In this document: one piece after another, positions 12,473-62,076 of the stretch
Position numbering within the stretch: the stretch's first letter is position 1
Layout of the letters: the number at the start of each line of letters is the position of its first letter
Source of the DNA: Gammaproteobacteria bacterium
GTDB taxonomy: Bacteria; Pseudomonadota; Gammaproteobacteria; Steroidobacterales; JBCCMA01
Length of the DNA: 64,000 bases
NCBI GenBank assembly: GCA_045106455.1
Contig: JBGCEL010000021.1
Location: 49,713-113,712, forward strand
Reading direction: 5' to 3'
Program-made: the position numbers and the translations under genes
Notes under the pieces: model-generated
Database searches by the model: none
Told to the model about the DNA's origin: nothing
What the model saw: the letters and a program-made list of their open reading frames with translations, nothing else

Positions 12473-12476
12473 CCCA

Positions 12477-12761: not shown

Positions 12762-12778
12762 ATGAAAAAGATCGTCAC

Positions 12779-16849: not shown

Positions 16850-17004
16850 AAATTTTGTTTGTTCTAATACCGCTCAGTTTGTCGCTGTTCGCGTTGGCGG
16901 TCTGGGGTTTTTTCTGGATGGTCCGCCATCGTCAGTTTGATGATCTGGATTCTGCCGGATGGCGCGTTCTGCTCGATGATCCGAAAGAACCCCCGCCCTC
17001 ATGA
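16846..17004 (+). CDS. ccoS: cbb3 oxidase maturation protein CcoS (52 aa, absent from the ORF track)
   Basis: Hand translation MKILFVLIPLSLSLFALAVWGFFWMVRHRQFDDLDSAGWRVLLDDPKEPPPS*; QFDDL motif; ATGA overlaps at both ends. Confidence 0.93.
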   Translation: MKILFVLIPLSLSLFALAVWGFFWMVRHRQFDDLDSAGWRVLLDDPKEPPPS

Positions 17005-17720: not shown

Positions 17721-17723
17721 TCG

Positions 17724-18356
17724 TTAATCTGGAAAGTAGTCCGCGCGATGCAGCTGGCGAATCAGTTGCGCCAGCGACGTCACCTGCATTTTTTCCATCA
17801 CATGGGCACGGTGAATCTCAACCGTACGTTGAGAGATGTTCAGATCCATCGCCACCACTTTGTTGGCTTTACCGTCGGCCACCATGGCCAGCACATCGCG
17901 CTCGCGCGGTGTCAGTGTGTCCAAACGTGCGCGGACTTGTGCCACGGACGCCGATTTTTCCAACTGCGCACGATTGCCGTCCAGCGCCTGATGGATACGA
18001 TCCAACAGGTCTTGATCGCGAAAGGGCTTGGCCAGAAAATCCGTGGCGCCGCGTTTTAGGGCCTCAACGGCCATTTCAATATCGCCGTGACCGGAGATGA
18101 ATATGATCTTGAGCTGTGTGCAGCCGCGTTCCGCCAAAATCTCCTGCAGCTCCAAACCACTCATTGACGGCATGCGCACGTCCAGCACCAACACACCGTG
18201 AGTATTGTCGTAGGCCGCCAGAAAATCCGCGGCCGATTCGAAACTTCTTGCCTCAAGGCCAACCGAGTCCATCAAAAACCCGAGGCTGTCGCGAACGGCT
18301 GTATCGTCATCAACGATATATATTCGTTGCTCGCTTACTCCGGCGCTATTTTTCAT
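17724..18356 (-). CDS. fixJ: FixJ-type response regulator (REC + LuxR HTH)
   Basis: IVDDD, LDVRMP, SGHGD, KPF, LTPRERDVL...SQRTVEIHRAHVMEKM; alternative GTG start at 18368. Confidence 0.9.
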   Translation of the reverse strand: MKNSAGVSEQRIYIVDDDTAVRDSLGFLMDSVGLEARSFESAADFLAAYDNTHGVLVLDVRMPSMSGLELQEILAERGCTQLKIIFISGHGDIEMAVEALKRGATDFLAKPFRDQDLLDRIHQALDGNRAQLEKSASVAQVRARLDTLTPRERDVLAMVADGKANKVVAMDLNISQRTVEIHRAHVMEKMQVTSLAQLIRQLHRADYFPD

Positions 18357-19515
18357 TTCCACCCGCACTATCCTCCGCAGCAGGTAACGTAAACCGAAAA
18401 CGTGAACCGCCGCCAGGGTTAGGTTCGCAATAAAGCTGTCCGCCGTGACGCTGCACTATCGTACTGCAAATCGACAAACCGATGCCCATTCCACTGGGCT
18501 TGGATGTCTCAAACGGCAGAAAGATTGAGTCCACCTTCTCCAGCGGCACGCCCTCACCGTGATCGATCACCACGATTTCTACCCCTTCGGCATGCGCATG
18601 ACTCTCGATGCGAATGCCCTTCTCAGCTTGCGACCGCAAAATCATCGCCTCGAGACCATTACGGACCAAATTGATCACCACCTGCTGAATTTGCACTGGG
18701 TCAATTTTCACAGCCGGCAGGTCGTCACTCAGAGACAGTTTGATGGGCGCGTCACTGTCGCGCGCCTCGGTCTCCATCAGCACCAACAGGTCGCGTAACA
18801 CATGGTTGATATTGCGCAGGGCGCGCGGCGTCTCGGTCTGCTGCGCCAGATCGCGCATGCGTTGCACCACGTCGCCTGCCCGCCTTGCTTGTTGCGCGAT
18901 GCTGCTCAGCGCATACGCGATCTTTTCAACTTGAGGTGTGTCCTGCGCCGTAAAGCGTTGCGCGGCATCGGCGTACGTCGCGATGGCCGCCAAAGGCTGA
19001 TTGATCTCATGCGCAATTCCGGCCGTCATCTCACCCAGCGTCGACACGCGATGCACGTGTTCGAGTGAGCGTTCCAATTGACGCCCGTGGGCACGTTCGC
19101 TTTTCAATTCGTTTTCAAGGCTGGTGCGGCGGCGCAGATCGCGCATGATGCCCACAAACAACGAGTGATCCCCCATGGGCGCCTCACCCACGGACAAATC
19201 GATGGGGAACACGGTGCCGTCGCTGTGGCGGGCCTTAACCTCGCGCCCGATTCCGATGATGCGTGCTTGCCCGGTTTCAAGGTAACGATCCATGTAGCCG
19301 TCGTGCTCGCCGTGATAGGGCTCGGGCATCAGAACCGTGACGTTCTTCCCTATGACGAATTCGGTCGAGAACCCGAACATTTCTTGCGCCCCGGCACTAA
19401 ACGACAAAATTCTGGCCTTTTCGTCGATCACGACGATGCCGTCCACGGCCGCACCCAGCAAAGCCTCCAGAAGCTTGTCACTGGCGTTCTCTATGGTCTC
19501 CTGACGGTCGATCAT
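18346..19515 (-). CDS. fixL: Soluble heme-PAS O2-sensor histidine kinase, FixL-type
   Basis: PAS segment LMPEPYHGEHDGYMDRY...IIGIGR (proximal His and distal Arg of FixL), AHEINQP H-box, GMGIGL; no TM segments. Confidence 0.88.
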   Translation of the reverse strand: MIDRQETIENASDKLLEALLGAAVDGIVVIDEKARILSFSAGAQEMFGFSTEFVIGKNVTVLMPEPYHGEHDGYMDRYLETGQARIIGIGREVKARHSDGTVFPIDLSVGEAPMGDHSLFVGIMRDLRRRTSLENELKSERAHGRQLERSLEHVHRVSTLGEMTAGIAHEINQPLAAIATYADAAQRFTAQDTPQVEKIAYALSSIAQQARRAGDVVQRMRDLAQQTETPRALRNINHVLRDLLVLMETEARDSDAPIKLSLSDDLPAVKIDPVQIQQVVINLVRNGLEAMILRSQAEKGIRIESHAHAEGVEIVVIDHGEGVPLEKVDSIFLPFETSKPSGMGIGLSICSTIVQRHGGQLYCEPNPGGGSRFRFTLPAAEDSAGGNEK

Positions 19516-19536
19516 GGTCCTTGCCGTGTAGCCAAT

Positions 19537-19551
19537 CTAAGTATTTTCCGA
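19537..19551 (+). promoter_or_regulatory. Candidate FixJ-type binding site in the fixL/usp divergent region (CTAAGTATTTTCCGA)
   Basis: Exact copy of the 15-mer at 9160-9174, same orientation and similar distance relative to the downstream gene. Confidence 0.6.
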
Positions 19552-19647
19552 GGGTTGGCAGCGGATACCCCGCGCTGTGCCAATCACACCCACAGGGTAC
19601 CTTTTGCAGATGAAAACGCCAATTCCGAGTCGACGCGGGGAACCGGT

Positions 19648-20568
19648 TTGAAGACCTATGTGATCGACATTGCCGACCCGACAGAAGATGAGCCCGCTTC
19701 GATTGCTGCCGCACACGCGCTGCTCGAGTCAGGCGATCGGGTGGTGCTGTTTCATTACATCTTTCATCAGCGATTGGTGGAGGAGCAGGGAAACCCTGCT
19801 CACCGGTTAGTGGCCGAGGCGCGCGACCTGCTGATGGCAAGCCGCACAGAGCAACTCGCCGCGCTCGCCGGGCAGTTCGCAAACCAGGACGTCCGATGCG
19901 AGGTTGTGTGGACGGATAATGGCTGGCAATCGCTGGTCAATTTCGTGCGCGACCAAAAGGCCGACATGCTGATTGCGCAGAGCGAACGACCGAGTCGCTG
20001 GCGTCCATTGACACGTGCCAACGACGATTGGCAGCTCATCCGCCACTGCCCGGTGCCGTTGCTACTTGCGCGCCCCGAATGCGGACATCAGTACAAACAA
20101 ATTTTGGCCGCCGTCGATCCCCTGCATGTGGATGACAAGCCTGCCGAACTCGACTATCGAATTCTCGACCACGCATCCGAAATATCAGCGCGTCACAACG
20201 CTTCACTTTGCGTATTGAACGTGGCGGTACCGGTAACGGTGAGCTCAAGCATCGCTGCTGCACCCATCGCTGAGGCTCAGGTGGTCACCAAAGAGATTGT
20301 GACGGCCCATCGCGAACGTCTGGCCACGATCCTTGAAGAGTTGGGTATTGATATCGCTCAAATTTGCGTGATTCCGGGGCTGCCTGCTCAGGAAATCGTC
20401 AAGCACGCCCAGGATCAGAATGCCGATTTGGTTGTCATGGGCGCCGTGTCGCGTTCTGCACTGCGCAACCTTCTGATTGGGAATACGGCTGAAAAAGTGC
20501 TGGACCAGATTGCGGCGGACACGCTAATAATCAAGCCGTTCGTGGACGACAGCACCACCGCACAATAA
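19648..20568 (+). CDS. Tandem-domain universal stress protein, UspE-like
   Basis: DWQLIRHCPVPLLL, ILAAVDP, DLVVMGAVSRS...IGNTAEKVL; start placed at TTG 19648 (uncertain). Confidence 0.88.
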   Translation: MKTYVIDIADPTEDEPASIAAAHALLESGDRVVLFHYIFHQRLVEEQGNPAHRLVAEARDLLMASRTEQLAALAGQFANQDVRCEVVWTDNGWQSLVNFVRDQKADMLIAQSERPSRWRPLTRANDDWQLIRHCPVPLLLARPECGHQYKQILAAVDPLHVDDKPAELDYRILDHASEISARHNASLCVLNVAVPVTVSSSIAAAPIAEAQVVTKEIVTAHRERLATILEELGIDIAQICVIPGLPAQEIVKHAQDQNADLVVMGAVSRSALRNLLIGNTAEKVLDQIAADTLIIKPFVDDSTTAQ

Positions 20569-20602
20569 AAAGCCCGGACGGCCTTTTCAGGGCCGCCCGG
20601 GC
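20567..20602 (-). terminator. Rho-independent terminator of the giant gene (possibly bidirectional)
   Basis: GC stem gcccggacggcc / ggccgcccgggc, followed by TTTTT on the minus strand; lies between convergent genes. Confidence 0.8.
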
Positions 20603-20617
20603 ACTCAACTCAGCGCA

Positions 20618-23600
20618 TCATGGGTTGGGACACATCAACTGAATGTTCACATCTCCGTGACCGCTGTGCGCGATACAGTCGCCGTAATAATGGCAATCAT
20701 TGGGCTGGTCCACCGTCTCGAAATCAAACCAGCCTGAGCCACCGAAGATCGACTGCTCATTGGGATGGGCGTTGGCGCCGGTGCCTACCTGAAACGACGC
20801 GCCAGTACGCTCGATGTTGAGCAGCGCTCCGGTGTTCCAGGCCTCACCCGTGAGCGTGCCGCTCCAATTCGGGTAGTACACCCAGTCGGCCGGGTCCGCG
20901 CCTTGCGGGTTATACGGACTACCCGGTGGTGGCACGTCGGTACGTCCACTGAGCATCAGGTCCACATTGAAACGATAGTTTGGCTCGTCCTGTTTGAACG
21001 CCATCCCGGTCAGGCGTGCCGTGCCGTCGCCCAACGTCACAAACTGGGCACCGTCGTCGAGATCGTAGCGATCGAGTATGCCGTCGTTGTTGAAGTTCGG
21101 CAGAAACAACGCTTGATACTGCGTTTCGTTCGCGACACAGGCCTGACCGCCGTCATCGGCGCAATCAATGCGCACATTGAAGTCGCCTTTGCCCGTGTGC
21201 TCAACGCAGTCCCGCCCCAGATTCAGGCAGCGATCGCCCTGACGCTCAGTAACGTAGTCGAACCAGCCCGAACCGCCGAACACGTTCACGTCATCCTGCG
21301 TATCGTTGGCACCGGTGCCCACCTGGAACGACGGTCCGCGTCGTGTGACGCTCAAGCTCGCACCCGCGTAGTCGTCCAGACCCAACAGCGTACCGCTCCA
21401 GTTCGGGTAGTACACCCAATCACTGATATCGGCGCCGAAGTTATTTTTCGGACTACCGGGCGGTGGCGTCGTGGTACGACCTGACAGCATCAGGTCGACG
21501 TCAAACGATTCATCCGCATCGGTACGCTTGCGCGCCACGCCGGTCAGGCGCGCCGTGCCATCCGCGTTGCGTGTGAAGCGCGCGCCGGGCAGGAAGTCGA
21601 AGCGATCCGCGCCGCCGTTGCCATCGAGATTCTGGAACCACAGTCCATGGTTGGCAGCGGACGTCACCACACAATCGTCGCTGTCGCATTTCTTATCAAT
21701 GCGCACGTTGTCGATCATGAATTTGTCCCAGCGACCGCCAAACTTGTTGGTTACCACAAACTTGATCACCGTCTCACCTGAGATATACGGCGAGATGTCG
21801 TACGTCTCAAAGCCACTCGCCGCACCGTGATAGCCACTGAACACGTCAAGCACCGTAAACGACTGTCCGCCGTTGTCGGAGATCTTGAGTGTGACCTCAT
21901 CATCGGGATCCACTTCATTGGAGGTGGTCCAGTCGAACATCAGCATCGCCGCTGGATATCCGGACAGATCGACCTGACGACGAATGCTGGGCTTTTGATG
22001 ACTATTGGGATAGTCGGTCAGAATGAGCACACCGTCGGCCACGCGGATCGCACCATCGCTGGCACCGCCGCCCTGAGGATCGTGCTCGAGCCACGGACCG
22101 GCCCAATCCATCGAGCCATCGTTATTGTCGTAACGCACCCGATTGAATTGATCCGCCACATCGCCCGCCACGCAGACCGGCGCCGTGCACTTCTTATCGA
22201 TGCTGACGTTATCGACAAAGAACTCGTCGTGCGAACCGCCAAACAGATTCGTGATGCGGAAACGGATAATGGTGTTGGCCGAGATGTACGGCGTCAGATC
22301 AAACATCTCCGAAGCGCCGACCACCTGACCCTGCACGCTTTCAAACATGGCAAGCGTGGTAAACGTGATGCCGCCATCGGTGGACACTTCCACTACCGCT
22401 TCATCGTTCTTGGTGGCCGCCGACGTCGTTGACCAGTCGAACATCAACATCGCCGCCTCAAACCCGGTCAGATCAACGCCGCGCGCAATGGACGGAGCTT
22501 GATGGCTGTCAGGCCGATCATTGAGTTGCAGACGACCGTCCACAATCGACACCGAACCACTGCTGGCGCCACCGCCCTGCGGATCGTTCTCAACCCATGG
22601 ACCGTTCCAATTCATCGAACCGTCGTTGTTGTCGTACGACACTTGATTAAAGTGATCGGCCACGTTGCCATCGACGCAGGACGCTTCGCCAAAGTAATGG
22701 CTGGCGTCGCTGTCACTCACGGGATTGCCAATAGGCACACCGCCATCGATTGGCTGTCCGGTCACGCTACCGATGTTGGCATACTGACCGGCGATCGCCG
22801 TGCCGCTGCCGGTGCAGACAAAGCTCGCACCCGGTGCCAGCGTGTCAGCAGGACAGGTCACGGCAACGCCCTGATTGTCAGTGACCACAATGCCGGTGAG
22901 GGTCAGCTCACCGGTGTTGCTGACGATGTACTCCCAGTTGACCGCGTCGCCTGCCGTTAGGATGGGGCCCGTTGGCGTATCGGCATCTTCACCGTTGGTC
23001 AGCTTCTCGATGTCCACTTCACCCTTGAGGCGAATCAAACCCGCATCGATGGTGTTGTTGGACTCACCGGGCTGCAGCACGATGGCAGGTGTAATGCCAC
23101 TGGTCGGATCGGGGTCCGAATCCAGTGCATCATCACCGGCATCTGGCGTGGTAAACGGCAGACCCGGTACGGCGCCAAACTGCACGAAGTAGGTCTCGCG
23201 CGAATCCAGATCCGTAAACAGGTAGTTGCCATTGGCGTCGGTGGTCGTGGTCGCCACGATCAGATCCGGCGCGCCGTCACCGTCGGTATCAATCCACAGG
23301 TTTACCGTAACGCCCGGCTGACCTGGCTCGTTAGGATCCTGCAGACCGTCGCGATCGCTGTCGACAAACACTGTGTCACCGATGCTTGCGGTCGGCAAAG
23401 GTAGACCGAGGTAATGCGACGGATCGGTGTCACCCACCGGATCGCCGATCGGATTGCCGTTGTCATCCACCGGCTGACCGCTGGCACTGCCCACGTTCAT
23501 ATACTGGCCGACAACCGCAACGCCGCTACCGGTGCAAACAAGCGTTGCCCCCGGCGCCAGCGTGTCGGCAGGACAATTCACGGCAACGCCCTGATTATCG

Positions 23601-26600
23601 CTCACCGTAATGCCGCTGACGGTCACGTTGCCGGTGTTGCTCACCGTGTACTGCCAGTTCACAGGCTGACCTTCCACAATTTGTGGTCCGGTTGGTGTAT
23701 CAGCATCTTCGCCGTTCGTGGTCTTCTCGATAGTCAGACCGCCGCCGGCACCGAAGTAATGACTGGGATCGCTGCCCGACACGGGATCGCCCACAGGCGT
23801 ACCACCGTCGCTTGGCTGACCGGTCACACTGCCGATGTTCGCGTACTGACCGGCAACGGCCGTACCGCTACCGCTGCAAGTAAAGCTTGCACCGGCGTCG
23901 AGCGTCGTGCCCGGGCAGGTCACCGCGACGCCCTGATCATCCACCACCACAATATTGCTGAGCGTCAACTCACCGGTGTTGGTGATGACATACGACCACG
24001 TGATCGGAGCGCCCACAGGCACGACCGGTCCGGTGGGCGTATCGGCATCTTCACCGTTGGTCAGTTTCTCAATGCTCACGCCTGAGTTCAGCGTTATGAC
24101 ACCGGCGTCGATGGTCAGATTGCTCTGACCCGGGTTCAACGTGATCGGTCCCGTGATACCGGTAGCCGGATCAGCGTCGCTGTCGGTGCTGTCGTCGCCC
24201 ACGTTTGGCGTGGTAAAGGGCTGCCCCGGCACCGCACCAAACTGCACGAAGTAGGTCAAGCGCGGATCGAGATCGCTAAACAGATAGTTGCCGTTCGCAT
24301 CGGTCATCACGGTGGCGATGATCGTGTCGGGCACGCCGTCGTTGTTGTCGTCGGTCCACAGATTTACCGTGACGCCCGGCAGACCCGGTTCGCCCGCGTC
24401 CTGCATACCGTCACGATCGGTGTCGACAAACACGGTGTCGCCTATGCTTGCCGTGGCGATGGCCACACCCAGATAGTGCGATGGATCACTGTCGCCAATC
24501 GGCGCACCAATCGGGTTGCCGTTGTCATCCACCGGCTGGCCCGTCGCCGACCCAATATTCACATACTGACCCACCGTCGCGATGCCCTCGCCCGTGCAGG
24601 TAAGCGTGGCGCCCGGCGCCAACGTATCGGTCGGGCAACTCACGCTCACACCCTGATCATCCGTGACCGTAATGTTGTTGACCGTGACGTTGCCGTTGTT
24701 GGTCACCACGTAGGTCCACATCACCGGCTGGTCTTCGGTGATTTCCGGTCCGGTTGGTGTGTCGGCATCTTCGCCGTTGGTGAGCTTCTCGATGGTAAGA
24801 CCCGCGCCCGCACCAAAGTAGTGGCTGGGATCCGAGTCAATGCGCGGATCACCAAACGGCGTACCGTTGTCGGTAGGCTGCGCACTCACTGAACCCAAGT
24901 TGCTGTACTGACCGGCCGTGGCAACGCCGCTGCCGGTACAGGTCATCGATGCACCCACGTCCAGCGTGGTCATCGGACAACTGACGGTCACGCCCTGATC
25001 ATCCGTGACCACAATATCAATCAGCGGGAACTCACCGGGGTTGCGCACCACGTAGGTCCAGTTCACCGTCTCACCGACGGTCAGAATTGGGCCCGTTGGC
25101 ACATCGGCATCCACACCGTTGGTGAATTTCTGAATCGTCACGTCGGGTTTGAGTTTCAAGATACCCGCATCAATCGTGAGATTGGTCTCACCCGGTGCCA
25201 CTGTAATAGGACCCGTGATGCCACTCAGCGGATCGACATCCGAATCGGCGGCATCGTCACCCACGTTGGGTTGTGTAAACGGTTCACCCGGAACCGGCAC
25301 CACCTGCACAAAGTAGGTCAGGCGCGGATCGAGATCCGTAAACAAATAGTTGCCGTTACCGTCGGTCGTCGTGGTCGCAATGATGCGATCGGGCGTACCG
25401 TCGCCGTCGTCATCGACCCACAAGTTCACGATGCGATCGGGGACGCCCCGTTCGCCGGGATCTTGCACGCCGTCACGATCCTCGTCCACGAACACCGTGT
25501 CACCAATGGCCGCGGTGGCAATAGGTGTACCCAAATAGTGCGACGGATCGGTGTCACCCACCGGATCGCCAATCGGGTTGCCGTTGTCATCCACCGGCTG
25601 ACCGGTGGCGCTACCGATGTTCGCGTATTGACCGACCGTTGCAATGCCCTCACCCGTGCAGGTGAAGCTCGCGCCGGGGGCAAGTGAGGCGGCGGGGCAG
25701 CTGACCGCTACACCCTGATCGTCGGTCACGACAATGTTGTTGACCGTGACGTTGCCTGTGTTGGTCACAACGTAAGTCCAGCTCACCGGATCGTCTTCGG
25801 TAATTTCAGGTCCGGTTGGCGTATCAGCATCCTGACCATTGGTCGATTTTTCGATCGTCAGGCCACCGCCTGCACCGAAGTAATGGCTCGGATCGTCGCC
25901 CGTGATCGGATCGCCGATGGGCGTGCCGCCATCCGACGGCTGACCGGTAATGGTGCCGATGTTGCTGTACTGACCAGCCGTTGCAACGCCAGTACCGGTG
26001 CAGACCAACGTCTCACCCGGCGCCAACGTATCGCCAGGGCAGCTCACGGCCACGCCTTCGCTGTCAGTGACCACGATGTTTACCAAATCCAGCTCGCCGG
26101 TGTTGGTCACCGTGTACGTCCAGGTGATCGGATCACCTACGCTCACGATCGGACCCGTGGGCGTGTCGGCGTCTTCACCGTTGGTCGTCTTCTCGATGCT
26201 GGCGCCGGAGGTGAGCACAATCACGCCGGCATCGATCGTCAGATTCGTCTCACCTGGCGTGAGTGCGATCGGCGGACTGATGCCGGTGGCTGGGTCAACG
26301 TCGCTGTCGGCTGAATCATCACCCACGTTTGGCAACGTGAACGGCTGACCGGGAACCGGTACGACCTGCACAAAGTAATTCAAACGCGGATCGAGATCCG
26401 TGAACAGATAGTTGCCGTTCGCATCGGTAATGAGTGTGGCGATGATGGTATCGGGCGTGCCGTCACCGTCATCGTCGGTCCACAGGTTCACCGTTACACC
26501 GGGCAGACCGGGTTCACCCGGGTCCTGAATGCCGTCGCGGTCTTCATCGACAAACACGGTGTCGCCAATCGCCGCCGTGGCAATCGGCGTACCCAGATAA

Positions 26601-29600
26601 TGCGACGGATCGGTGTCACCGACCGGGTCGCCAATTGGGTTGCCGTTGTCATCCACCGGCTGGCCCGTGGCGCTACCGATGTTGGCGTACTGACCAACCG
26701 TTGCGATGCCCTCACCCGTACAGGTGAAGCTCGCACCAGCGGCAAGACTGTCCGCCGGGCAGTTTACGGCCACACCCTGATCGTCGGTCACGACAATGTT
26801 GTTGACCGTCACGTTGCCCGTGTTCGTCACAACGTAAGTCCAGCTCACCGGATCGTCTTCGGTGATTTCCGGACCGGTAGGCGTATCGGCATCTTCGCCA
26901 TTGGTCGATTTCTCGATGGTCAGGCCCGCGCCGGCACCAAAGTAATGACTGGGATCGTCGCCCGTAATCGGATCGCCAACCGGTGTGCCGCCGTCCGACG
27001 GCTGACCGGTAATCGTACCGATGTTGCTGTATTGACCCGCCGTCGCAACGCCTGTACCGGTGCAGACCAACGTCTCACCCGGCGCCAACGTATCGCTCGG
27101 GCAGCTCACGGCAACGCCTTCGCTGTCAGTGACCACGATGTTTACCAAATCCAGCTCGCCGGTGTTGGTCACCGTGTACGTCCAGGTGATCGGATCACCT
27201 ACGCTCACGATCGGACCGGTGGGCGTATCGGCATCTTCGCCGTTGGTGGTTTTCTCGATGCTCGCGCCTGAAGTCAGCACGATGACACCGGCATCAATGG
27301 TCAGGTTTGTTTCGCCCGGCGTCAGTGCGATCGGCGGGCTAATGCCTGTGGCCGGATCAACGTCGCTGTCGGCCGTGTCGTCACCTACGTTTGGCAACGT
27401 GAACGGCTGACCGGGAACCGGTACGACCTGCACAAAGTAATTCAGCCGCGGATCAAGATCCGTAAACAGATAATTGCCGTTCGCATCGGTAACCAGTGTG
27501 GCGATGATCGTGTCGGGCGTGCCGTCACCGTCATCGTCCGTCCACAGGTTCACCGTCACACCAGGCAGACCCGGTTCACCGGGGTCCTGAATGCCATCGC
27601 GGTCTTCATCCACAAATACGGTATCGCCAATCGCGGCTGGTGCAATCGGTGTGCCCAAATAGTGCGACGGATCGGTGTCACCGACCGGGTCGCCAATCGG
27701 GTTGCCGTTGTCATCCACCGGCTGGCCCGTGGCGCTGCCGATGTTCGCGTATTGGCCGAGAACGGCGATGCCCTCACCCGTGCAGGTGAAACTCGCGCCC
27801 GGCGCAAGCGAATCGGCGGGACAGCTGACAGCCACCCCTTGATCATCCGTGACCACAATGTTGTTCACGGTCACGTTGCCGCTGTTGGTCACGACATAGG
27901 TCCAGCTCACCGGATCGTCTTCGGTGATCTCGGGACCGGTGGGCGTATCAGCGTCTTCGCCGTTGGTCGATTTCTCAATGGTCAGGCCCGCGCCGGCACC
28001 AAAGTAATGACTGGGATCGTCACCCGTAACGGGATCGCCGACCGGCGTACCGCCGTCCGAAGGCTGACCCGTGATGGTGCCGATGTTGCTGTATTGGCCC
28101 GCGGTGGCAACACCGCTTCCGGTGCAGACCAACGTCTCACCCGGCGCCAACGTATCGGCAGGGCAGCTCACCGCCACGCCTTCGCTGTCGGTGACCACAA
28201 TATCGATCAGATCAAGTTCGCCCGTGTTCGTGACGGTGTACGTCCAGGTAACGGGATCACCTACGCTCACAATCGGACCGGTGGGCGTGTCGGCATCTTC
28301 GCCGTTGGTCGTCTTCTCGATGCTGGCGCCGGAGGTGAGCACAATCACGCCGGCGTCAATGGTCAGGTTGGTCTCACCTGGCGTCAGTGTGATCAACGGA
28401 CTGATGCCGGTCGCCGGATCGACGTCGCTGTCGGCCGTGTCATCGCCAACGTTTGGCAACGTGAAGGGCTGACCGGGAACCGGTACCACTTGCACGAAGT
28501 AATCCAGTCGCGGATCGAGATCCGGGAACAGATAGTTGCCGTTCGCGTCCGTGACGACCGTCGCGATAATTGTGTCGGGCGTGCCGTCACCGTCATCGTC
28601 CGTCCACAGATTAACGGTAACGCCAGGCAGACCCGGCTCGCCGGCATCCTGAATGCCGTCGCGGTCTTCATCGACAAACACGGTGTCGCCAATGGTTGCC
28701 GTTGGGATTGGCGTACCCAAATAGTGCGATGGATCGGTGTCGCCAACAGGGTCACCAATTGGGTTGCCGTTATCGTCCACCGGCTGGCCCGTGGCGCTGC
28801 CGATATTCGCGTACTGACCCACGATGGCAATGCCCTCACCCGTACAGGTAAAGCTTGCGCCTGCTGCCAGCGTATCCGCGGGGCAATCTACGGCCACACC
28901 CTGATCATCGGTGACCACAATGTTGTTCACCGCCACGTTGCCGGTGTTGGTGACGACATACGTCCAGGTCACCGGATCGTCTTCGGTGATCTCGGGGCCG
29001 GTGGGTGTATCGGCATCTTCGCCGTTGGTCGATTTTTCGATCGTCAGGCCACCACCCGCGCCGAAGTAATGACTGGGGTCGTCGCTGGTAATCGGATCGC
29101 CGATGGGCGTACCGCCATCTGACGGCTGACCCGTGATGGTGCCGATGTTGCTGTACTGACCCGCGGTGGCAACACCGCTGCCGGTGCACACCAAGGTATC
29201 ACCGGGAGCCAGCGTATCGCCGGGGCAGCTCACCGCCACGCCTTCGCTGTCGGTGACCACAATGTTCACCAAATCCAACTCGCCGGTATTGGTCACCGTG
29301 TACGTCCAGGTGATCGGATCACCCACGCTCACGATCGGACCGGTGGGCGTGTCAGCATCTTCGCCATTGGTGGTCTTCTCGATGCTGGCGCCCGAGGTCA
29401 ACACAATCACGCCAGCGTCGATGGTCAGGTTGGTCTCGCCGGGTGTTAATGCGATCGGCGGGCTGATGCCGGTCGCTGGGTCAACGTCGCTGTCGGCAGA
29501 ATCGTCACCTACGTTTGGCAATGTGAACGGCTGACCGGGAACCGGTTCTACCTGCACGAAGTAATCCAGACGTGGATCGAGATCGGGGAACAAATAGTTG

Positions 29601-32600
29601 CCGTTCGCGTCCGTCACCACCGTCGCGATGATCGTGTCGGGCGTGCCGTCGCCATCATCATCGGTCCACAGATTGACGGTAACGCCAGGCAGACCCGGCT
29701 CACCCGGATCCTGAATGCCGTCACGGTCTTCATCGACAAACACGGTGTCGCCAATGGCGCCCGTGGGAATGGGTGTACCTAAATAATGCGACGGGTCGCT
29801 GCCGGCGACCGGATCGCCAACCGGGTTGCCGTTTTCATCCACCGGTTGACCCGTGGCGCTACCGATGTTGGCGTACTGCCCCACGGTGGCGATGCCCTCA
29901 CCCGTACAGGTAAAGCTTGCACCGGGCGCAAGCGTATCGGCGGGACAGTCGACCGCCACGCCCTGATCATCGGTGACCACGATGTTGTTGACCGTCACGT
30001 TGCCCGTGTTGGTCACCACATAGGTCCAGGTTACCGGATCATCTTCGGTAATTTCCGGACCGGTCGGCGTATCGGCATCTTCGCCGTTGGTCGACTTCTC
30101 GACCGCCAGGCCGCTGCCCGCACCAAAGTAGTGACTGGGGTCGGTGTCGCACACTTCCTCTTCTTCGAAGAAGCCGCAAACATTACCGATGTTGGCGTAC
30201 TGACCCGACTGCGCGATGCCCTCGCCCGTGCAGGTAATTGATTCACCCGGGTCCAGGAATTCGATCGCCGGACAGGTAACGGTCACACCCTGATCATCGC
30301 TGAGCAAAATGGTGTTCAAACGCACGTTACCGGTGTTGGTGGCAACGTAGGTCCAGATGACCGTGTCACCCACGGGAATGGCCGGACCCGGCGCCACATC
30401 GGCATCAAAACCGATGGTGTCTTTTTCCAGCGAGATTTCAAAAAAGATGCCGAAGTAATGACTCGGGTCGCTGTCGCTGACCGTCTCGCCATTGCCCTGC
30501 GCCGACACCGAACCGACGTTGGCGTACTGTCCCGCCGTCGACGTGCCGTTAGCCGAGCAGGTAAACGACTCGCCCGGCGCAAGCGTTGTTGCGGGGCAAG
30601 TAACGGGTACGCCCTGGTCATCCACCACCACGATGTCGGTCAGCGTGACGCCGCCGGTGTTCGTGACAACGTAGTCCCAGGTGACGGGCAAACCAACAAT
30701 GACTTCCGGTCCGGTTGGGTCATCGGCGTCGACATTCTGTGTCAACGTTTCGATCTCGATCATTGCACCGGCGCCGGTGTAATGACTCGGATCGGTTGCG
30801 CACACTGGCTCACCGTCACCCACACTCGCGCAGGCCGTACCGATGTTCATGTACGGACCGCTTTGGGCCACGCCCGTACCCGTACAGGTCACCGATCCAC
30901 CCGGCGGCAGACTCAGCGGCGGACACGTGACCACCACGCCCTGATCATCCGTCACATTGATTGATGACAGCACCACGTTGCCGTCATTAGAAATGGTGTA
31001 TTCCCAGGTAATGGGCTCACCGACGCCAATGGTCGGTCCCGGTGCGACGTCGGCATCTTCACCGTTGGTCGTTTTCTGCAGTGAGATAAGCGGATCGGAG
31101 CCAAAGTAATGACTCGGATCAGAATCGCTAACGTCCGCGCCTACCGGCGGCGTGCCCGTGACCGCGCCCACATTCATATACTGACCCGAGGTCACGGTGC
31201 CCGTCGCCGTACACGTCATTGACACACCCGGTGCAAGCGTCGTGCTTGGGCAGGTGACCGTCACGCCTTCGCTATCGGTGACCACGACATCAGACAACTC
31301 GATGTTGCCGCTGTTTGTCACGACGTATTCCCACGTCACCATACCGCCCACCGGCAACTCGGGGCCGGTTGGTGAGTCGGCATCAAACGACTCGGTCAAC
31401 GTTTCAATGAGAATCGCTGGCACAGAACCGAAGTAGTGACTCGCGTCACTGGCGCACACCTCCTGCGGCTCGTCGGTTTGATCGTTACCGCAGACGGTCG
31501 CGTTGTTCACATACTGACCGGCCTGCGCATCATCAGTTGAGCCGGTGCAGGTGAAGGTGGCGCCCGTGGCAAGAAAATCGCTCGGGCACGTCACGCTCAC
31601 GCCCTGGTCATCGACCACGAGCACTTCAAACAAATCGGCGTCACCCGTGTTGGTAACAATGTATTCCCAGGTAACGTCGGCACCGGCCTCAACGATCGGA
31701 CCGGTCGGTTCATCGGCGTCCACGCCGTTGGTGAGTTTTTCGATCGCGATATCGACCGGTTCACCGCCAAACAAGCCCAAATCAACGTCCATACGTTCGC
31801 CACCCGAACGCACGGGAATCACACGCGTGGTGCCCAGCGAGTTGGCGTCGCTGTCGAGCTGAATGTCGATACCCTGATTGCGTTTACCAATGCGATACGG
31901 CGCCGGCACGACGTACTGCACGCGGTAGTCGCCGGGCTGCAGGTTCGCAAATTCGAAATAACCGCGCGCGTCCGTCTTCATGACCTGACCTGTCGGCACA
32001 CCGTCGGCGGTCAGCAGCAGCACTTCGATGCCCGCGACGCCCTCTTCGCCCGCATTCTGCAAACCGTCGCCGTCGCGATCAAACCAAACCCAGTCGCCCA
32101 CACTCGCGGTGCGATACATACCGGCATCGAGATCGAAATGACCGAACTGTTCGCGCACGTCGACCGGCGAGCTCATGGACGTGGCCGGATCGATGTCACT
32201 GTCGAGCGATTCAAGCGCCGCGTTGGTGGCCGAAAATTGCCACTCACCATCCGCCTCAATACCTAATCGATAGCAGCCTGCCTGCATCGTTTGAAAAACG
32301 AAATAGCCACTGCTATCGGTGCGCGTGGCACGCGCCGCGCCTTGATCATCCACCATGGCTTTGCCAGCGCAGTCGTACAACGCAACGTTGACGTTGGCGA
32401 GGCCGGGTTCGCCGACATTCTGGATACCGTCCGCATTCAAGTCTTCCCAGACCCGGTCACCCAGTTCGCCGTGTTTGATGTTCACGACACCGGCATCGAT
32501 GCCGGCAAGCGTGGCACCCGCCGCAATTTCAAGCTTTGATGAAATGCCCGTAGCAGGATCGACGTCACTGTCTACTTGCGTATCGCGCCCCATTTGCGCC

Positions 32601-32947
32601 GGGCAGAATTTGCGTCCTGCTTCACTTGCCACGCGAATGCGATAGCAACCGGCCGGCACATCAAATTTGTAGACGCCGCGCGAGTCGGTGCGCGTTGCCG
32701 CTAAAAAAGCGCCATCGCAGCCCAACAGACTCACATGAACGTCGGCCAGACCGGCCTCCGATTTATCACGCACGCCATTTTCATTTTGATCCAGCCAAAC
32801 CGTGCTGCGCACCTGCGCATCGACGGCCAACCGGTCGGCTCCGGCGTTTAGCGCGCCTGGCAAGACGGCCAGCGCAAAGCCGACCACCAACAACGTGGAA
32901 AACCATCGAGAAAACCCGGTCCCTGCGGTCGTATGCATGCGGTGCAT
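20618..32947 (-). CDS. Giant (~4,109 aa) secreted repetitive adhesin-like protein: 10 SdrD-B-like domains, 19 DUF11/DUF7507-like Ig repeats, 2+2 C-terminal domains
   Basis: Uninterrupted ORF; purine-rich GGGGAG ribosome site before ATG 32947; Sec-type signal peptide; GDxVWxDxxxDGxQ SdrD-B motifs; repeated IEKxTNG...WxYxVTNTG...VTD...CP...C...QYxN...DPSHY units. Confidence 0.9.
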   Translation of the reverse strand: MHRMHTTAGTGFSRWFSTLLVVGFALAVLPGALNAGADRLAVDAQVRSTVWLDQNENGVRDKSEAGLADVHVSLLGCDGAFLAATRTDSRGVYKFDVPAGCYRIRVASEAGRKFCPAQMGRDTQVDSDVDPATGISSKLEIAAGATLAGIDAGVVNIKHGELGDRVWEDLNADGIQNVGEPGLANVNVALYDCAGKAMVDDQGAARATRTDSSGYFVFQTMQAGCYRLGIEADGEWQFSATNAALESLDSDIDPATSMSSPVDVREQFGHFDLDAGMYRTASVGDWVWFDRDGDGLQNAGEEGVAGIEVLLLTADGVPTGQVMKTDARGYFEFANLQPGDYRVQYVVPAPYRIGKRNQGIDIQLDSDANSLGTTRVIPVRSGGERMDVDLGLFGGEPVDIAIEKLTNGVDADEPTGPIVEAGADVTWEYIVTNTGDADLFEVLVVDDQGVSVTCPSDFLATGATFTCTGSTDDAQAGQYVNNATVCGNDQTDEPQEVCASDASHYFGSVPAILIETLTESFDADSPTGPELPVGGMVTWEYVVTNSGNIELSDVVVTDSEGVTVTCPSTTLAPGVSMTCTATGTVTSGQYMNVGAVTGTPPVGADVSDSDPSHYFGSDPLISLQKTTNGEDADVAPGPTIGVGEPITWEYTISNDGNVVLSSINVTDDQGVVVTCPPLSLPPGGSVTCTGTGVAQSGPYMNIGTACASVGDGEPVCATDPSHYTGAGAMIEIETLTQNVDADDPTGPEVIVGLPVTWDYVVTNTGGVTLTDIVVVDDQGVPVTCPATTLAPGESFTCSANGTSTAGQYANVGSVSAQGNGETVSDSDPSHYFGIFFEISLEKDTIGFDADVAPGPAIPVGDTVIWTYVATNTGNVRLNTILLSDDQGVTVTCPAIEFLDPGESITCTGEGIAQSGQYANIGNVCGFFEEEEVCDTDPSHYFGAGSGLAVEKSTNGEDADTPTGPEITEDDPVTWTYVVTNTGNVTVNNIVVTDDQGVAVDCPADTLAPGASFTCTGEGIATVGQYANIGSATGQPVDENGNPVGDPVAGSDPSHYLGTPIPTGAIGDTVFVDEDRDGIQDPGEPGLPGVTVNLWTDDDGDGTPDTIIATVVTDANGNYLFPDLDPRLDYFVQVEPVPGQPFTLPNVGDDSADSDVDPATGISPPIALTPGETNLTIDAGVIVLTSGASIEKTTNGEDADTPTGPIVSVGDPITWTYTVTNTGELDLVNIVVTDSEGVAVSCPGDTLAPGDTLVCTGSGVATAGQYSNIGTITGQPSDGGTPIGDPITSDDPSHYFGAGGGLTIEKSTNGEDADTPTGPEITEDDPVTWTYVVTNTGNVAVNNIVVTDDQGVAVDCPADTLAAGASFTCTGEGIAIVGQYANIGSATGQPVDDNGNPIGDPVGDTDPSHYLGTPIPTATIGDTVFVDEDRDGIQDAGEPGLPGVTVNLWTDDDGDGTPDTIIATVVTDANGNYLFPDLDPRLDYFVQVVPVPGQPFTLPNVGDDTADSDVDPATGISPLITLTPGETNLTIDAGVIVLTSGASIEKTTNGEDADTPTGPIVSVGDPVTWTYTVTNTGELDLIDIVVTDSEGVAVSCPADTLAPGETLVCTGSGVATAGQYSNIGTITGQPSDGGTPVGDPVTGDDPSHYFGAGAGLTIEKSTNGEDADTPTGPEITEDDPVSWTYVVTNSGNVTVNNIVVTDDQGVAVSCPADSLAPGASFTCTGEGIAVLGQYANIGSATGQPVDDNGNPIGDPVGDTDPSHYLGTPIAPAAIGDTVFVDEDRDGIQDPGEPGLPGVTVNLWTDDDGDGTPDTIIATLVTDANGNYLFTDLDPRLNYFVQVVPVPGQPFTLPNVGDDTADSDVDPATGISPPIALTPGETNLTIDAGVIVLTSGASIEKTTNGEDADTPTGPIVSVGDPITWTYTVTNTGELDLVNIVVTDSEGVAVSCPSDTLAPGETLVCTGTGVATAGQYSNIGTITGQPSDGGTPVGDPITGDDPSHYFGAGAGLTIEKSTNGEDADTPTGPEITEDDPVSWTYVVTNTGNVTVNNIVVTDDQGVAVNCPADSLAAGASFTCTGEGIATVGQYANIGSATGQPVDDNGNPIGDPVGDTDPSHYLGTPIATAAIGDTVFVDEDRDGIQDPGEPGLPGVTVNLWTDDDGDGTPDTIIATLITDANGNYLFTDLDPRLNYFVQVVPVPGQPFTLPNVGDDSADSDVDPATGISPPIALTPGETNLTIDAGVIVLTSGASIEKTTNGEDADTPTGPIVSVGDPITWTYTVTNTGELDLVNIVVTDSEGVAVSCPGDTLAPGETLVCTGTGVATAGQYSNIGTITGQPSDGGTPIGDPITGDDPSHYFGAGGGLTIEKSTNGQDADTPTGPEITEDDPVSWTYVVTNTGNVTVNNIVVTDDQGVAVSCPAASLAPGASFTCTGEGIATVGQYANIGSATGQPVDDNGNPIGDPVGDTDPSHYLGTPIATAAIGDTVFVDEDRDGVQDPGERGVPDRIVNLWVDDDGDGTPDRIIATTTTDGNGNYLFTDLDPRLTYFVQVVPVPGEPFTQPNVGDDAADSDVDPLSGITGPITVAPGETNLTIDAGILKLKPDVTIQKFTNGVDADVPTGPILTVGETVNWTYVVRNPGEFPLIDIVVTDDQGVTVSCPMTTLDVGASMTCTGSGVATAGQYSNLGSVSAQPTDNGTPFGDPRIDSDPSHYFGAGAGLTIEKLTNGEDADTPTGPEITEDQPVMWTYVVTNNGNVTVNNITVTDDQGVSVSCPTDTLAPGATLTCTGEGIATVGQYVNIGSATGQPVDDNGNPIGAPIGDSDPSHYLGVAIATASIGDTVFVDTDRDGMQDAGEPGLPGVTVNLWTDDNNDGVPDTIIATVMTDANGNYLFSDLDPRLTYFVQFGAVPGQPFTTPNVGDDSTDSDADPATGITGPITLNPGQSNLTIDAGVITLNSGVSIEKLTNGEDADTPTGPVVPVGAPITWSYVITNTGELTLSNIVVVDDQGVAVTCPGTTLDAGASFTCSGSGTAVAGQYANIGSVTGQPSDGGTPVGDPVSGSDPSHYFGAGGGLTIEKTTNGEDADTPTGPQIVEGQPVNWQYTVSNTGNVTVSGITVSDNQGVAVNCPADTLAPGATLVCTGSGVAVVGQYMNVGSASGQPVDDNGNPIGDPVGDTDPSHYLGLPLPTASIGDTVFVDSDRDGLQDPNEPGQPGVTVNLWIDTDGDGAPDLIVATTTTDANGNYLFTDLDSRETYFVQFGAVPGLPFTTPDAGDDALDSDPDPTSGITPAIVLQPGESNNTIDAGLIRLKGEVDIEKLTNGEDADTPTGPILTAGDAVNWEYIVSNTGELTLTGIVVTDNQGVAVTCPADTLAPGASFVCTGSGTAIAGQYANIGSVTGQPIDGGVPIGNPVSDSDASHYFGEASCVDGNVADHFNQVSYDNNDGSMNWNGPWVENDPQGGGASSGSVSIVDGRLQLNDRPDSHQAPSIARGVDLTGFEAAMLMFDWSTTSAATKNDEAVVEVSTDGGITFTTLAMFESVQGQVVGASEMFDLTPYISANTIIRFRITNLFGGSHDEFFVDNVSIDKKCTAPVCVAGDVADQFNRVRYDNNDGSMDWAGPWLEHDPQGGGASDGAIRVADGVLILTDYPNSHQKPSIRRQVDLSGYPAAMLMFDWTTSNEVDPDDEVTLKISDNGGQSFTVLDVFSGYHGAASGFETYDISPYISGETVIKFVVTNKFGGRWDKFMIDNVRIDKKCDSDDCVVTSAANHGLWFQNLDGNGGADRFDFLPGARFTRNADGTARLTGVARKRTDADESFDVDLMLSGRTTTPPPGSPKNNFGADISDWVYYPNWSGTLLGLDDYAGASLSVTRRGPSFQVGTGANDTQDDVNVFGGSGWFDYVTERQGDRCLNLGRDCVEHTGKGDFNVRIDCADDGGQACVANETQYQALFLPNFNNDGILDRYDLDDGAQFVTLGDGTARLTGMAFKQDEPNYRFNVDLMLSGRTDVPPPGSPYNPQGADPADWVYYPNWSGTLTGEAWNTGALLNIERTGASFQVGTGANAHPNEQSIFGGSGWFDFETVDQPNDCHYYGDCIAHSGHGDVNIQLMCPNP
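22691..30124 (-). repeat. Intragenic tandem array: 7 units of 1062 bp (354 aa; Ig + SdrD-B + Ig)
   Basis: Equivalent HYFG anchor positions at 22691 and 30125 are 7434 = 7 x 1062 bp apart; seven IGDTVFVD motifs; 26052-26155 is identical to 27114-27217. Confidence 0.93.
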
Positions 32948-33205
32948 CGCCCTCTCCCCTTTCAAAGCTTGTTGTAATGCTCTTGGCACGTGATCGGATC
33001 GTGTAATTGCCCAATCATCGTTTTATCGTTATTCAGCTAAGCCATGGTAGTCCAAAACCCGTTTTTCTTCACCTTTACGGGTTATGCGCAATCGCGCGTA
33101 AGTACTTAATAAAACATAAGTACCACGAGACCGCGTTGCGCTGCTGGCCATCCTTGACTTAAGTTATGTCATACCACAAATAGATCAGCGACGAAGCGAC
33201 GCGGG

Positions 33206-33221
33206 TGTGACGCGTTTCACA
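33206..33221. promoter_or_regulatory. CRP-family (CRP/Vfr/Clp) box 1
   Basis: TGTGA-CGCGTT-TCACA, a perfect TGTGA-N6-TCACA match in a divergent intergenic region. Confidence 0.7.
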
Positions 33222-33244
33222 AATGTGAACTTTGGGGTGAAACC

Positions 33245-33260
33245 TGTGACCCGGCTCACT
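33245..33260. promoter_or_regulatory. CRP-family box 2
   Basis: TGTGA-CCCGGC-TCACT, 9/10 match, offset 39 bp from box 1. Confidence 0.62.
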
Positions 33261-33377
33261 GTCGAAATGTAAAACGGCATGGCATGTTGAAGCTCGAACT
33301 TATGCAATGTACGACGACAAAGACAGACAGAACGCAAACGCGCCGCGTGCGCGAACCCCTACACGGAGGTGGCAACC

Positions 33378-34133
33378 ATGGCCGCATCGAGCAATGTTGA
33401 GAAAACCCGAATGAATGAGCGCATGCACTGCAGCGCGGCGGCAACACTCACGCTGCTGAGCGGACTGCTGTTGAGCGGCTGCACGACGCCCCAGCCCAGC
33501 GTTACACCCAGCGAATCCAGCAACATGGCGGTGAGCGCCGCGTTTCATTTTCAGGCCGAGCCCCTGAATTGCGAAGAGCCCGGTCACGAGACACTGTCCT
33601 CTGTGGTGCGCGTGGCCAGCACTGACGGTGCGGATGCCAGTGGCGTTGTCATTGCACGCAACCGTGTCCTCACGGCCGCACACGTGCTGGACGATCATAT
33701 ACAGGCGCTGGTGTACGTCGACGCAACCTATCAACAAGCCACGGTGATCGCGCGCGATTCAGCCAACGACCTGGTCATTCTCGATACCCCTACCGGATTT
33801 TTAACGCCGATCCGCATCAGCACGGAAAATTTGTTTTCCGCCGAGCCGGTCTGGACAGTCGGCTTTCCGCTGGCGCTGGAACAAACGGCCAACTTTGGCC
33901 GCTATCAGCAACACGTTAACGGTGCTATCCACAGCACAGCGTCCACCAACGCCGGTGCATCAGGCGGCGGTCTTTTGCGCTGCACGGGCGGCAATTTCGA
34001 ACTGGCGGGAATGATTCGAGGCTACGGCGCCTACTGGGACGCCGGTGAGCTGCGCCGCATCGAAGATCTGTCGATTTCCGTGCCGGCCGATACGATTTCA
34101 GCGTTTGTTGTGAACGCGGGCGTCGGACTCTAA
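33378..34133 (+). CDS. Trypsin-like (S1) serine protease, probable lipoprotein
   Basis: LLLSGC lipobox; LTAAHV, NDL and GASGG triad motifs; GGAGG before ATG 33378 (33411 and 33423 also possible). Confidence 0.85.
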   Translation: MAASSNVEKTRMNERMHCSAAATLTLLSGLLLSGCTTPQPSVTPSESSNMAVSAAFHFQAEPLNCEEPGHETLSSVVRVASTDGADASGVVIARNRVLTAAHVLDDHIQALVYVDATYQQATVIARDSANDLVILDTPTGFLTPIRISTENLFSAEPVWTVGFPLALEQTANFGRYQQHVNGAIHSTASTNAGASGGGLLRCTGGNFELAGMIRGYGAYWDAGELRRIEDLSISVPADTISAFVVNAGVGL

Positions 34134-47797: not shown

Positions 47798-47819
47798 GGC
47801 AGTGTGCTTCCCTAAAAAC

Positions 47820-61205: not shown

Positions 61206-61233
61206 TATTGAAACATGCGGATTCGAAAAACAG

Positions 61234-62058: not shown

Positions 62059-62076
62059 ACGCATAGAGATCGCGAC

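Follow-up and report, generated by a model that had tools for sequence, protein, structure and literature searches.

Introduction

The described systems closest to the protein reported here are the CLIPPER adhesins and the staphylococcal Sdr proteins. The protein is encoded by a 4,109-codon open reading frame (ORF) on the minus strand, at 20618..32947, of a 64,000-nucleotide window of DNA from a Gammaproteobacteria bacterium (assembly GCA_045106455.1, contig JBGCEL010000021.1, contig positions 49,713 to 113,712). The window is the whole stretch that was analysed, and positions are counted from its first letter. The mature protein would have a mass of about 419 kDa, an isoelectric point (pI) of about 4.05 and a net charge of about -481.

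CLIPPER (DUF11, PF01345) and CLIPPER_2 (DUF7507, PF24346) are the two families of interest. DUF7507 was renamed CLIPPER_2 in a study that predicts CnaA-type Lys-Asn isopeptide bonds for it, formed between the first and the penultimate strand with an Asp as catalyst, and that reports the bond in a CLIPPER crystal structure (10.1101/2025.04.25.650565 = PMC12617251; this and the other papers cited are used in their accessible parts). The CLIPPER adhesin B9T28_05395 of Acinetobacter silvestris, from the same source, is likewise Gram-negative and long, with a signal peptide and tandem CnaA-like immunoglobulin-like (Ig) modules, and the Lys/Asp/Asn set and one disulfide per module are common to such adhesins and the window protein. 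Unlike them, the window protein alternates CLIPPER_2 with SdrD_B, has its putative binding end at the C-terminus, lacks an OmpA-like or other anchor, and bears an unnamed barrel family at its tip.

The B domains of the second system bind three Ca2+ and unfold above 2 nN (PMC6232131). With the staphylococcal Sdr MSCRAMMs (SdrD, SdrG and UafA; PDB 10ps, 4jdz and 3irp) the window protein shares the fold of the B domains (Z 14.7-15.8) and their first acidic loop, whereas it has no N2N3 ligand region, SD repeats or LPxTG, carries an extra DxDxDG loop where SdrD B1 has a shorter turn, and would have its base and tip at the opposite ends to those of the staphylococcal adhesins. Membership in the Sdr MSCRAMMs was rejected, the NCBIfam SdrD model (NF012181) scoring 342 against a cut-off of 2500 bits and LPxTG being absent.

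Fibrillar adhesins are marked by large size with repeated stalk domains, a distal adhesive domain and a cell-surface anchor (PMC9210967). The window protein has the first in its 4,109 residues, 10 SdrD_B and 19 DUF7507 domains. No known adhesive Pfam family scored over its cut-off at the distal end, where the modelled fold of one domain, J1, is common to cleaved adhesins and carbohydrate-binding modules (CBMs), and no cell-surface anchor was found. Anchors were present in only 846 of the 1,666 positives of that study, so the missing anchor weakens the likeness but does not exclude it. We class the protein with the CLIPPER/SdrD-B fibrillar adhesins, as a variant for which no anchor is known. 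We think it probable, though by no means assured, that it is a secreted fibre stiffened by calcium, disulfides and isopeptides, with a sugar-binding tip and non-covalent retention. Its new element is the U domain, an uncatalogued family judged by sequence comparison.

Architecture of the stalk

From the N-terminus the domains are arranged as SSS IIIII (I S I)x7 J J U U, in which S is SdrD_B and I the Ig-like CLIPPER_2, so that 29 stalk repeats are followed by four end domains. An earlier interpretation of this DNA from its letters, the sequence-only reading, had given the same order and counts and had proposed an InterPro/Pfam scan; cutting the protein into modules and running the Pfam part of that scan, which matched 10 SdrD_B and 19 DUF7507 stretches, led to the same result. 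The three N-terminal SdrD_B modules (aa 45-394, 31766..32815, minus strand as for all parts of the protein) are divergent. Five CLIPPER_2 modules (aa 398-942, 30122..31756) and then seven 354-aa units of CLIPPER_2, SdrD_B and CLIPPER_2 (aa 945-3420, 22688..30115) come after them; among units 1-4, identity is 92-97% at the protein level and 83-88% at the DNA level. Scanned as single modules, all three DUF7507 modules tried scored 50-59 bits against a cut-off of 27, and two SdrD_B modules scored 98 and 88 bits (PF17210, cut-off 29.7). Across species Ig modules 1-5 cluster by position, unlike the central units, which are homogenised.

Each of the seven array SdrD-B modules contains two Dx[DN]x[DN]G loops, as had been claimed from the letters, and each of the three N-terminal ones contains one. 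The motif occurs 17 times in the protein, compared with a mean of 1.4 and a maximum of 8 in 500 shuffles, and most SdrD-B arrays that we examined from other phyla have one such loop per module.

SdrD-B10, Ig19 and J1 were modelled in one chain (predicted local distance difference test, pLDDT, 90.8), and the stalk repeats came out as tandem beta-sandwiches, the outcome on which the sequence-only reading had staked itself. The SdrD-B10 model matched the SdrD B domain with Z 15.8 (root-mean-square deviation, rmsd, 1.7; 109 aligned) and the UafA B domain with Z 15.7 (rmsd 2.1). The first acidic loop of the array modules aligns to the SdrD loop and the second falls at a five-residue gap of SdrD B1. 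The earlier naming of these modules as SdrD-B holds. By analogy with the staphylococcal domains we infer that they bind Ca2+.

A CP..C pair and a DxSHY motif are present in 19 of 19 Ig modules, in agreement with the sequence-only reading. Its view of D[PA]SHY as a linker, however, was not sustained, because the motif occupies model residues 228-232, inside the last beta-strand (224-235) of the modelled Ig. We also considered a split donor-strand domain and, by alignment, saw none: the first SdrD-B and the last U both align over their full length.

Candidate isopeptide bonds of the Ig modules

The Lys/Asp/Asn set was found in 17 of the 19 Ig modules; in modules 2 and 4 Thr replaces the Lys. In the modelled Ig19 the first strand bears Lys 129 and the penultimate strand Asn 205, and a middle strand ends in Asp 171; this is the CnaA-type layout of the CLIPPER paper. 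When 90 Ig modules were aligned, 75 had K/D/N and 6 had T/D/N; another 2 were cut by a gap or contig end, and the remaining 7, from L025, were misaligned around an insertion, two of which kept the Asn when realigned. Asp, Asn and both Cys were invariant in a set of 30 aligned modules. The residue set and the modelled strand positions thus point to isopeptide bonds in the Ig modules. The sequence-only reading had mentioned possible isopeptides without placing them; Lys is absent from six of the seven array SdrD-B modules, and therefore any such bonds would be confined to the Ig modules. A profile of the 30 Ig modules gave no PDB match at E<=10, and the solved CLIPPER structure is not among the structural matches listed for the stalk model, whose lists are filled by jelly-roll matches.

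Thr also replaces Lys at Ig modules 2 and 4 in genomes G004 and G003. The tree of Ig modules did not decide between one and two origins of the change. These modules, at 30449-31420 (minus strand) in the window, are thus found in three species (L013, L024), and they may possibly serve as extensible segments near the base.

Integrity of the repeat array

The sequence-only reading had raised the doubt that the ORF might be an assembly chimera. The genome assembly (G000) contains no N, and the units differ at third codon positions, where their identity is 46-69% (61-69% for units 1-4), with a longest exact in-register run of 104 nt. The genes on either side of the ORF also flank its orthologue in G004; those downstream are shared by G001 and those upstream by G003, which counters the doubt. 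Contig pieces were listed for three sequencing runs, which are possibly the source of this DNA and so not independent of it; a run with two 151-base pieces (X4) was left out. In the best run the contigs are unbroken or overlapping over 19600-25568 and 29294-33600 and fragmented between. Summed depth over 25671-29406, which the tool warns is no copy number, had means of 44.8, 17.7 and 14.8 (8 bins) against about 30, 12 and 11 in the flanks, or about 1.3-1.5 times, and short loose ends lie at 27553. The raised depth may come from pieces placed twice or from the collapse of one or two units.

An artefact, either a chimera or a wrongly expanded repeat, would account for the loss of contig continuity within about 25.6-29.3 kb in the listed pieces of all three runs, for the raised depth and loose ends, and for a 33-residue N gap in the array of the G004 orthologue. 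Given the divergence of the units and the conserved gene order, we consider this highly improbable; the depth, if anything, hints at missing rather than extra units. The copy number of the near-identical central units is that of this one assembly. Because of its gap, the shorter length of the G004 protein proves nothing, and the gap-free G003 frame (1,759 aa; SSS I6 S I S I U) shows that length varies in the genus.

The J domains

The first two end domains are J1 (22178..22678), with a Cys at both ends, and J2 (21677..22177). J1 was modelled as a galactose-binding-like jelly-roll of the reelin subrepeat, cleaved adhesin or CBM type; J2, 56% identical to it, is taken as a second one. The sequence-only reading had called the pair beta-sandwich-like and had placed binding domains at the C-terminus; the first description is matched by the J1 model, and the second is plausible from the modelled folds and their neighbours. 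J1 matched reelin with Z 14.1 (rmsd 2.6, 132 aligned), the K1 cleaved adhesin of gingipain with 13.8, a hyaluronan-binding module with 12.7, MAM domains with 12.6 and many carbohydrate-binding modules with 11-12. Over reelin subrepeat B (PF21471), the gingipain cleaved adhesin, CBM16/22/61 and MAM, the shared fold is at Z 11-14 and rmsd 2.4-3.4, but sequence identity is at most 20%. In PF21471 the J domains scored 24.6 and 20.6 bits against a cut-off of 27, and the whole protein 32.7. As modelled, J1 is a binding fold, one that does not tell a glycan from a protein ligand.

In a small protein encoded elsewhere in the genome (G000:C87:42436-43104, plus strand), a hydrophobic N-terminus is combined with a single J-like domain (a weak match, 26 bits) and with a PEP-CTERM-like tail. 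Its sequence suggests that a J jelly-roll need not be accompanied by other domains to be displayed.

The U domain is a widespread uncatalogued family

U1 (21152..21676) has about 175 residues, among them the conserved Q3875, W3895, D3922, N3924 and K3834, and is predicted to be an eight-stranded beta-barrel. U2 (20621..21151) is 51% identical to U1, has Tyr in place of the conserved Lys, and ends the protein without a sorting signal. The two had been left unassigned by the sequence-only reading, and they remain so after our searches: U matched no Pfam or NCBIfam family and had no relative in the PDB by sequence (best E 0.21). A sequence search of the ESM Atlas gave no usable match, which shows neither absence nor novelty, and we found no description of the domain in the literature searched, which largely did not extend to subscription papers and the supplements of the CLIPPER paper.

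We searched 1.84 billion cluster representatives with a profile built from 15 close U copies. It matched 1,520 clusters at E<=0.001, with 920 still matched at 1e-10 and 268 at 1e-30. Among the groups that appear in the names or titles of carriers are Planctomycetota, Bacteroidota, Verrucomicrobiota, Acidobacteriota, Bdellovibrionota, Deltaproteobacteria and Thiotrichaceae. Scanning of 193 proteins located 525 U domains in 192 of them, and 245 of 333 successive copies lie within 30 residues of each other. A hydrophobic N-terminus was seen in 122 of 173 U proteins and in 342 of 743 control ORFs, a weak control, so that the comparison carries little weight. For domain company we scanned 31 of the 150 listed representatives, picked as long and not seen before: SdrD_B occurred in 9, a type IX secretion system (T9SS) tail in 6, PA14 in 3, pAdhesive_15 in 2, and VWA, ricin lectin and LamG in one each, while 7 had no match at E<=1e-8.

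Closer to the window, a JJUU query matched in 14 of 41 genomes searched, G000 included; its U part matched in all four congeners and in G011 and G022. Out of 300 other genomes drawn from the class, one was matched by the U profile. The close protein relatives come from sources named 'Gammaproteobacteria bacterium' or 'Pseudomonadota bacterium'.

Two kinds of arrangement were seen besides that of the window. In two Acidobacteriota records (L031, L039) U stands at intervals inside long SdrD-B arrays, for example S8-U-S7-UU-S4-U-S3-J. Proteins made almost only of U, in 2-6 tandem copies, occur in Planctomycetota, Thiotrichaceae and Bdellovibrionota records (P0003-P0015, P0017, P0022, P0023, P0025; L036, L040, L042, L047), and L040 has three U genes in a row.

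A soluble or a membrane barrel

The U1U2 model is all-beta (pLDDT 91.0), with U predicted as an eight-stranded up-and-down barrel. Structural comparison with VIA, which rates Z under 8 as common background, covered 48,161 chains. Eight-stranded membrane barrels took the ten best places for U; nine of them are natural and one is designed, and they matched at Z 9.0-10.9, rmsd 3.0-4.5 and 6-9% identity, among them TtoA (Z 10.9, rmsd 3.5, 132 aligned), the designed barrel (10.8) and OprF (10.5). Soluble barrels ranked next (designed BB1, 8.9; BcnB, 7.9). The small eight-stranded barrels, whether OmpA, OmpW, NspA and TtoA or YceI/BcnA, TbpB-type and designed soluble ones, share the predicted topology at no more than 13% identity, and none stands clear as a relative; U is set apart from them by the Cys at either end, by a long loop rich in Pro and by motifs of its own. 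The position of the Cys suggests that the termini are close together and that U hangs off the chain as a bead.

From these scores U2 could be an outer-membrane anchor, with the C-terminus as base and the N-terminus as tip, and it would then supply the missing anchor. Outer-membrane barrels have lipid-facing hydrophobic strands and a terminal aromatic residue. By a crude proxy, membrane-type strands number 1 in U1 and 2 in U2 (mean 3.3 over 527 U domains), against a mean of 6.5 in outer-membrane protein (OMP) controls from this genome (10 of the 11 OMP matches over cut-off). No OMP Pfam family matched the U domains, and Phe, Tyr or Trp is the last residue in only 4 of 73 proteins ending in U. 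Over the 527 domains the strands have a conserved, hydrophobic face on which Gly/Ala are nearly fixed; the opposite face varies and is polar, in many cases charged, as is the pattern in soluble barrels. U also lies inside SdrD-B arrays (L031, L039), in T9SS cargo and in 4-6 tandem copies, one family member (L020) has no U at all, and BB1 shows that a soluble barrel can score Z 8.9. We therefore regard a U2 anchor as quite unlikely. The conserved hydrophobic and variable polar faces, the strand count and the contexts lead us to favour U as a soluble domain, although the top structural scores point the other way.

If U is soluble, it might be a small-molecule pocket of lipocalin, YceI or haem-binding type, or an enzyme, and the fibre a scavenging or sensing arm and not mainly an adhesin. 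BcnB and BcnA (Z 7.9 and 7.7), pyocyanin demethylase (7.8), YceI (7.2) and HtaB (7.1) are in keeping with this, as is the existence of proteins almost wholly of 2-6 U copies. With Foldseek, U1U2 matched at E<=0.001 only kievitone hydratase chains, soluble double-barrel enzymes, at TM-scores of about 0.21; algal and bacterial agglutinins followed at E 0.004-0.02, also with low TM-scores, and the two- and three-domain models overall gave TM-scores of 0.08-0.27, which is uninformative. Yet the Z values lie within the common background of the tool, the near-invariant Gly/Ala suggest a tightly packed core, the conserved polar residues are on the face opposite the hydrophobic one, and U accompanies stalk and lectin domains. 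We find the pocket or enzyme reading improbable.

A conserved patch in U

In U1 numbering the conserved residues are Q118 (Q3875), W138 (W3895), D165 (D3922), N167 (N3924) and K77 (K3834). Q118 is present in 520 of 527 U domains. In a mean-field covariation analysis (effective number of sequences, 390) W138-D165, W138-N167, K77-W138 and K77-D165 ranked within the 20 strongest pairs. Where K77 is present, N167 is retained in 89% of the weight, against 42% where it is absent; related sequences inflate such figures. The alternation along the strands puts W138, D165 and N167 on the polar face. Read simply, these sequence patterns suggest a salt bridge with the Lys stacked on the Trp, which would lock a loop or form a ligand site. 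That U is a new barrel-fold binding family with this patch as its salt-bridged ligand site is, in our estimate, an evenly balanced proposition.

Far less likely is that the co-varying K3834, D3922, N3924 and W3895 form an aromatic-capped Lys-Asn isopeptide in a new, widespread soluble barrel family, a proposal to which we give little credence. The set resembles an isopeptide triad with an aromatic cap, a kind that the isopeptide survey (10.1101/2025.04.25.650565) found only in beta-sandwich folds. Against the proposal, one strand carries both D165 and N167, the site seems to face outward, and U2 has Tyr for the Lys. If true, it would be the first natural isopeptide outside the CnaA/CnaB beta-sandwich folds.

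Export, attachment and function

SSS begins all six full-length family members examined, whereas their ends vary (JJUU, JJU, JJJ and U; JUU, JJJU and UJJ in partial genes). The constant start and the varying C-terminal set suggest that the N-terminal SdrD-B triplet is a candidate base and the shuffled C-terminal end the outward tip.

The hydrophobic N-terminus and the paired cysteines point to Sec export and periplasmic folding with disulfides. For the outer membrane, type II secretion appears the likeliest route, since gspC, D, E and F lie in a row on another contig of this genome (G000:C31) and gspG and gspL on C22 (D, E, G and L over curated cut-offs), and other export signals were not found. 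A 1,896-aa PKD-domain protein is encoded directly after gspCDEF (L050:6235-11925). RTX adhesins secreted by type I systems have RTX nonapeptides and no N-terminal signal peptide; a giant adhesin of that class was rejected, as the protein has no RTX motif and has a hydrophobic N-terminus. No type I transporter gene was found among the 47 window ORFs scanned, and the protein has no GGxGxDx[LIF] match.

Outside the cell, the stalk would be held by Ca2+ and Lys-Asn bonds as its homologues suggest, its fold being predicted and its family membership given by sequence. At 4-4.5 nm per domain the fibre would measure very roughly 120 nm. The four end domains, with predicted jelly-roll and barrel folds, would form a tip that binds sugars of surfaces or matrix, as judged from fold neighbours, domain company and the conserved, apparently outward Trp/Asp/Asn/Lys patch. 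Retention on the cell or matrix would be non-covalent, possibly through the N-terminal triplet.

Vibrio cholerae Bap1 and RbmC, the 'double-sided tape', offer a working analogy: a constant domain binds exopolysaccharide (PMC10102183), and they are secreted modular adhesins with variable outward domains and no covalent cell anchor. They have no domains or folds in common with the window protein and no long stalk. A paralogue in the same genome (G000:C37:10957-18369; L016, L053) is a 2,471-aa frame of order SSS IIII S x8 I JJ U. It shares the SSS start, the stalk of CLIPPER_2 and SdrD_B, the JJU tip and the lack of an anchor, but its stalk is mainly SdrD_B, it has one U, and a divergently oriented polysaccharide operon lies next to it (with a chain-length-regulator-like ORF, AAA_31, Wzy, GT2 and GT4), an arrangement kept in G004. 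Its place beside polysaccharide genes in both genomes would fit a matrix-bound fibre like Bap1 and RbmC. Those two proteins are exported by type II.

Several results weigh against a cell-surface adhesin with a sugar-binding tip. We detected no LPxTG, [VI]PEP or RTX motif and no second hydrophobic segment in the protein, and the Pfam and NCBIfam scans of it gave no anchor family. No polysaccharide or secretion genes lie beside the window gene, and to our knowledge a 419-kDa chain exceeds known type II substrates. The J1 and J2 scores in PF21471 are under the cut-off, and the J fold is also that of protein-binding MAM and Eph domains. U has no PDB relative by sequence, and in structure it comes closest to outer-membrane barrels (Z 10-10.9) and barrels that bind small molecules, not lectins. 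The isopeptide bonds are deduced from a residue set and a model. As a separate observation, recognisable anchors are used elsewhere in this genome, as seen in other giant ORFs: those at C13:22755-30920 (2,722 aa) and C9:47454-63488 (5,345 aa) have OMP-barrel matches near the C-terminus, and that at C125:19068-27353 (2,762 aa) ends in a Gly-rich hydrophobic tail. A further giant ORF is at C163:8351-22405 (4,685 aa).

The very acidic composition, the extra Dx[DN]x[DN]G loop of the stalk SdrD-B modules, absent from most other SdrD-B arrays examined, and the lack of an anchor would also suit a structural component of a matrix or sheath, a calcium-binding rod acting as a cross-linker of the matrix, with no specific ligand. 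Between orthologues, however, the tip is conserved like the rest (J pair 92%, U pair 87%, SSS 80%), and tip modules are shuffled across the family, as expected for binding domains. We judge such a rod improbable and retain the secreted adhesive fibre.

Gene boundaries and neighbouring genes

The stop-free frame runs over 20618-32989 when counted from a GTG. The ATG at 32947 is preceded by a Shine-Dalgarno-like GGAGAGG (32951..32957), read directly from the sequence, and agrees with the start region of the G004 orthologue. Right after the stop is an intrinsic-terminator-like hairpin (20572..20602, minus strand) of 12 pairs, 11 of them G-C, with a T tail. The N-terminus is a likely Sec signal peptide (32840..32947) with a basic N-region, hydrophobic residues 15-33 and an Ala-rich cleavage region; hydropathy (19-residue window) peaks at 1.99 at residue 15, with a maximum of 1.38 beyond residue 60. 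By-eye inspection of the N-termini gave no evident lipoprotein or Tat signal. The signal peptide proposed by the sequence-only reading is therefore likely, and the richness in T, G, D, P and V that it remarked on agrees with our counts (G 12.6%, T 11.3%, D 10.9%, V 9.9%, P 7.3%). Rfam had no match anywhere in the window. The sequencing runs listed as containing this DNA are labelled plant metagenome, and no RNA dataset is among them.

Directly downstream, 9266-20568 holds a cbb3 oxidase cluster (ccoN, O, P, G, I and a DsbD_2-like gene), a PAS histidine kinase with a LuxR response regulator (FixLJ-like) and a tandem Usp gene, in an order kept in G004 and G001. Divergent from the adhesin gene is a gene for a trypsin-like protease (33369-34133, plus strand), also a neighbour in G004 and G003, which could process the fibre. 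Farther off are a TRAP transporter with a T component (TAtT, DctP, Q, M) adjoining an S49 peptidase (45029-48707, minus strand), and genes for a CHASE2-Ser/Thr kinase, a PP2C phosphatase and an FHA protein in a row (58578-62862, plus strand).

Significance

Stalks of this kind were described in 2025, and the present one, although large, would hold no surprise for specialists. It would mix calcium-locked and probably isopeptide-locked domains and includes two inherited Lys-less modules, which makes it a test piece for force spectroscopy. A 419-kDa fibre without an anchor also makes one ask by what means such adhesins pass through the outer membrane and remain attached. The U family is found in several phyla, on stalks with lectin and sorting domains; a predicted soluble barrel is unusual as an adhesin module, and at 175 residues it is an easy structural target.

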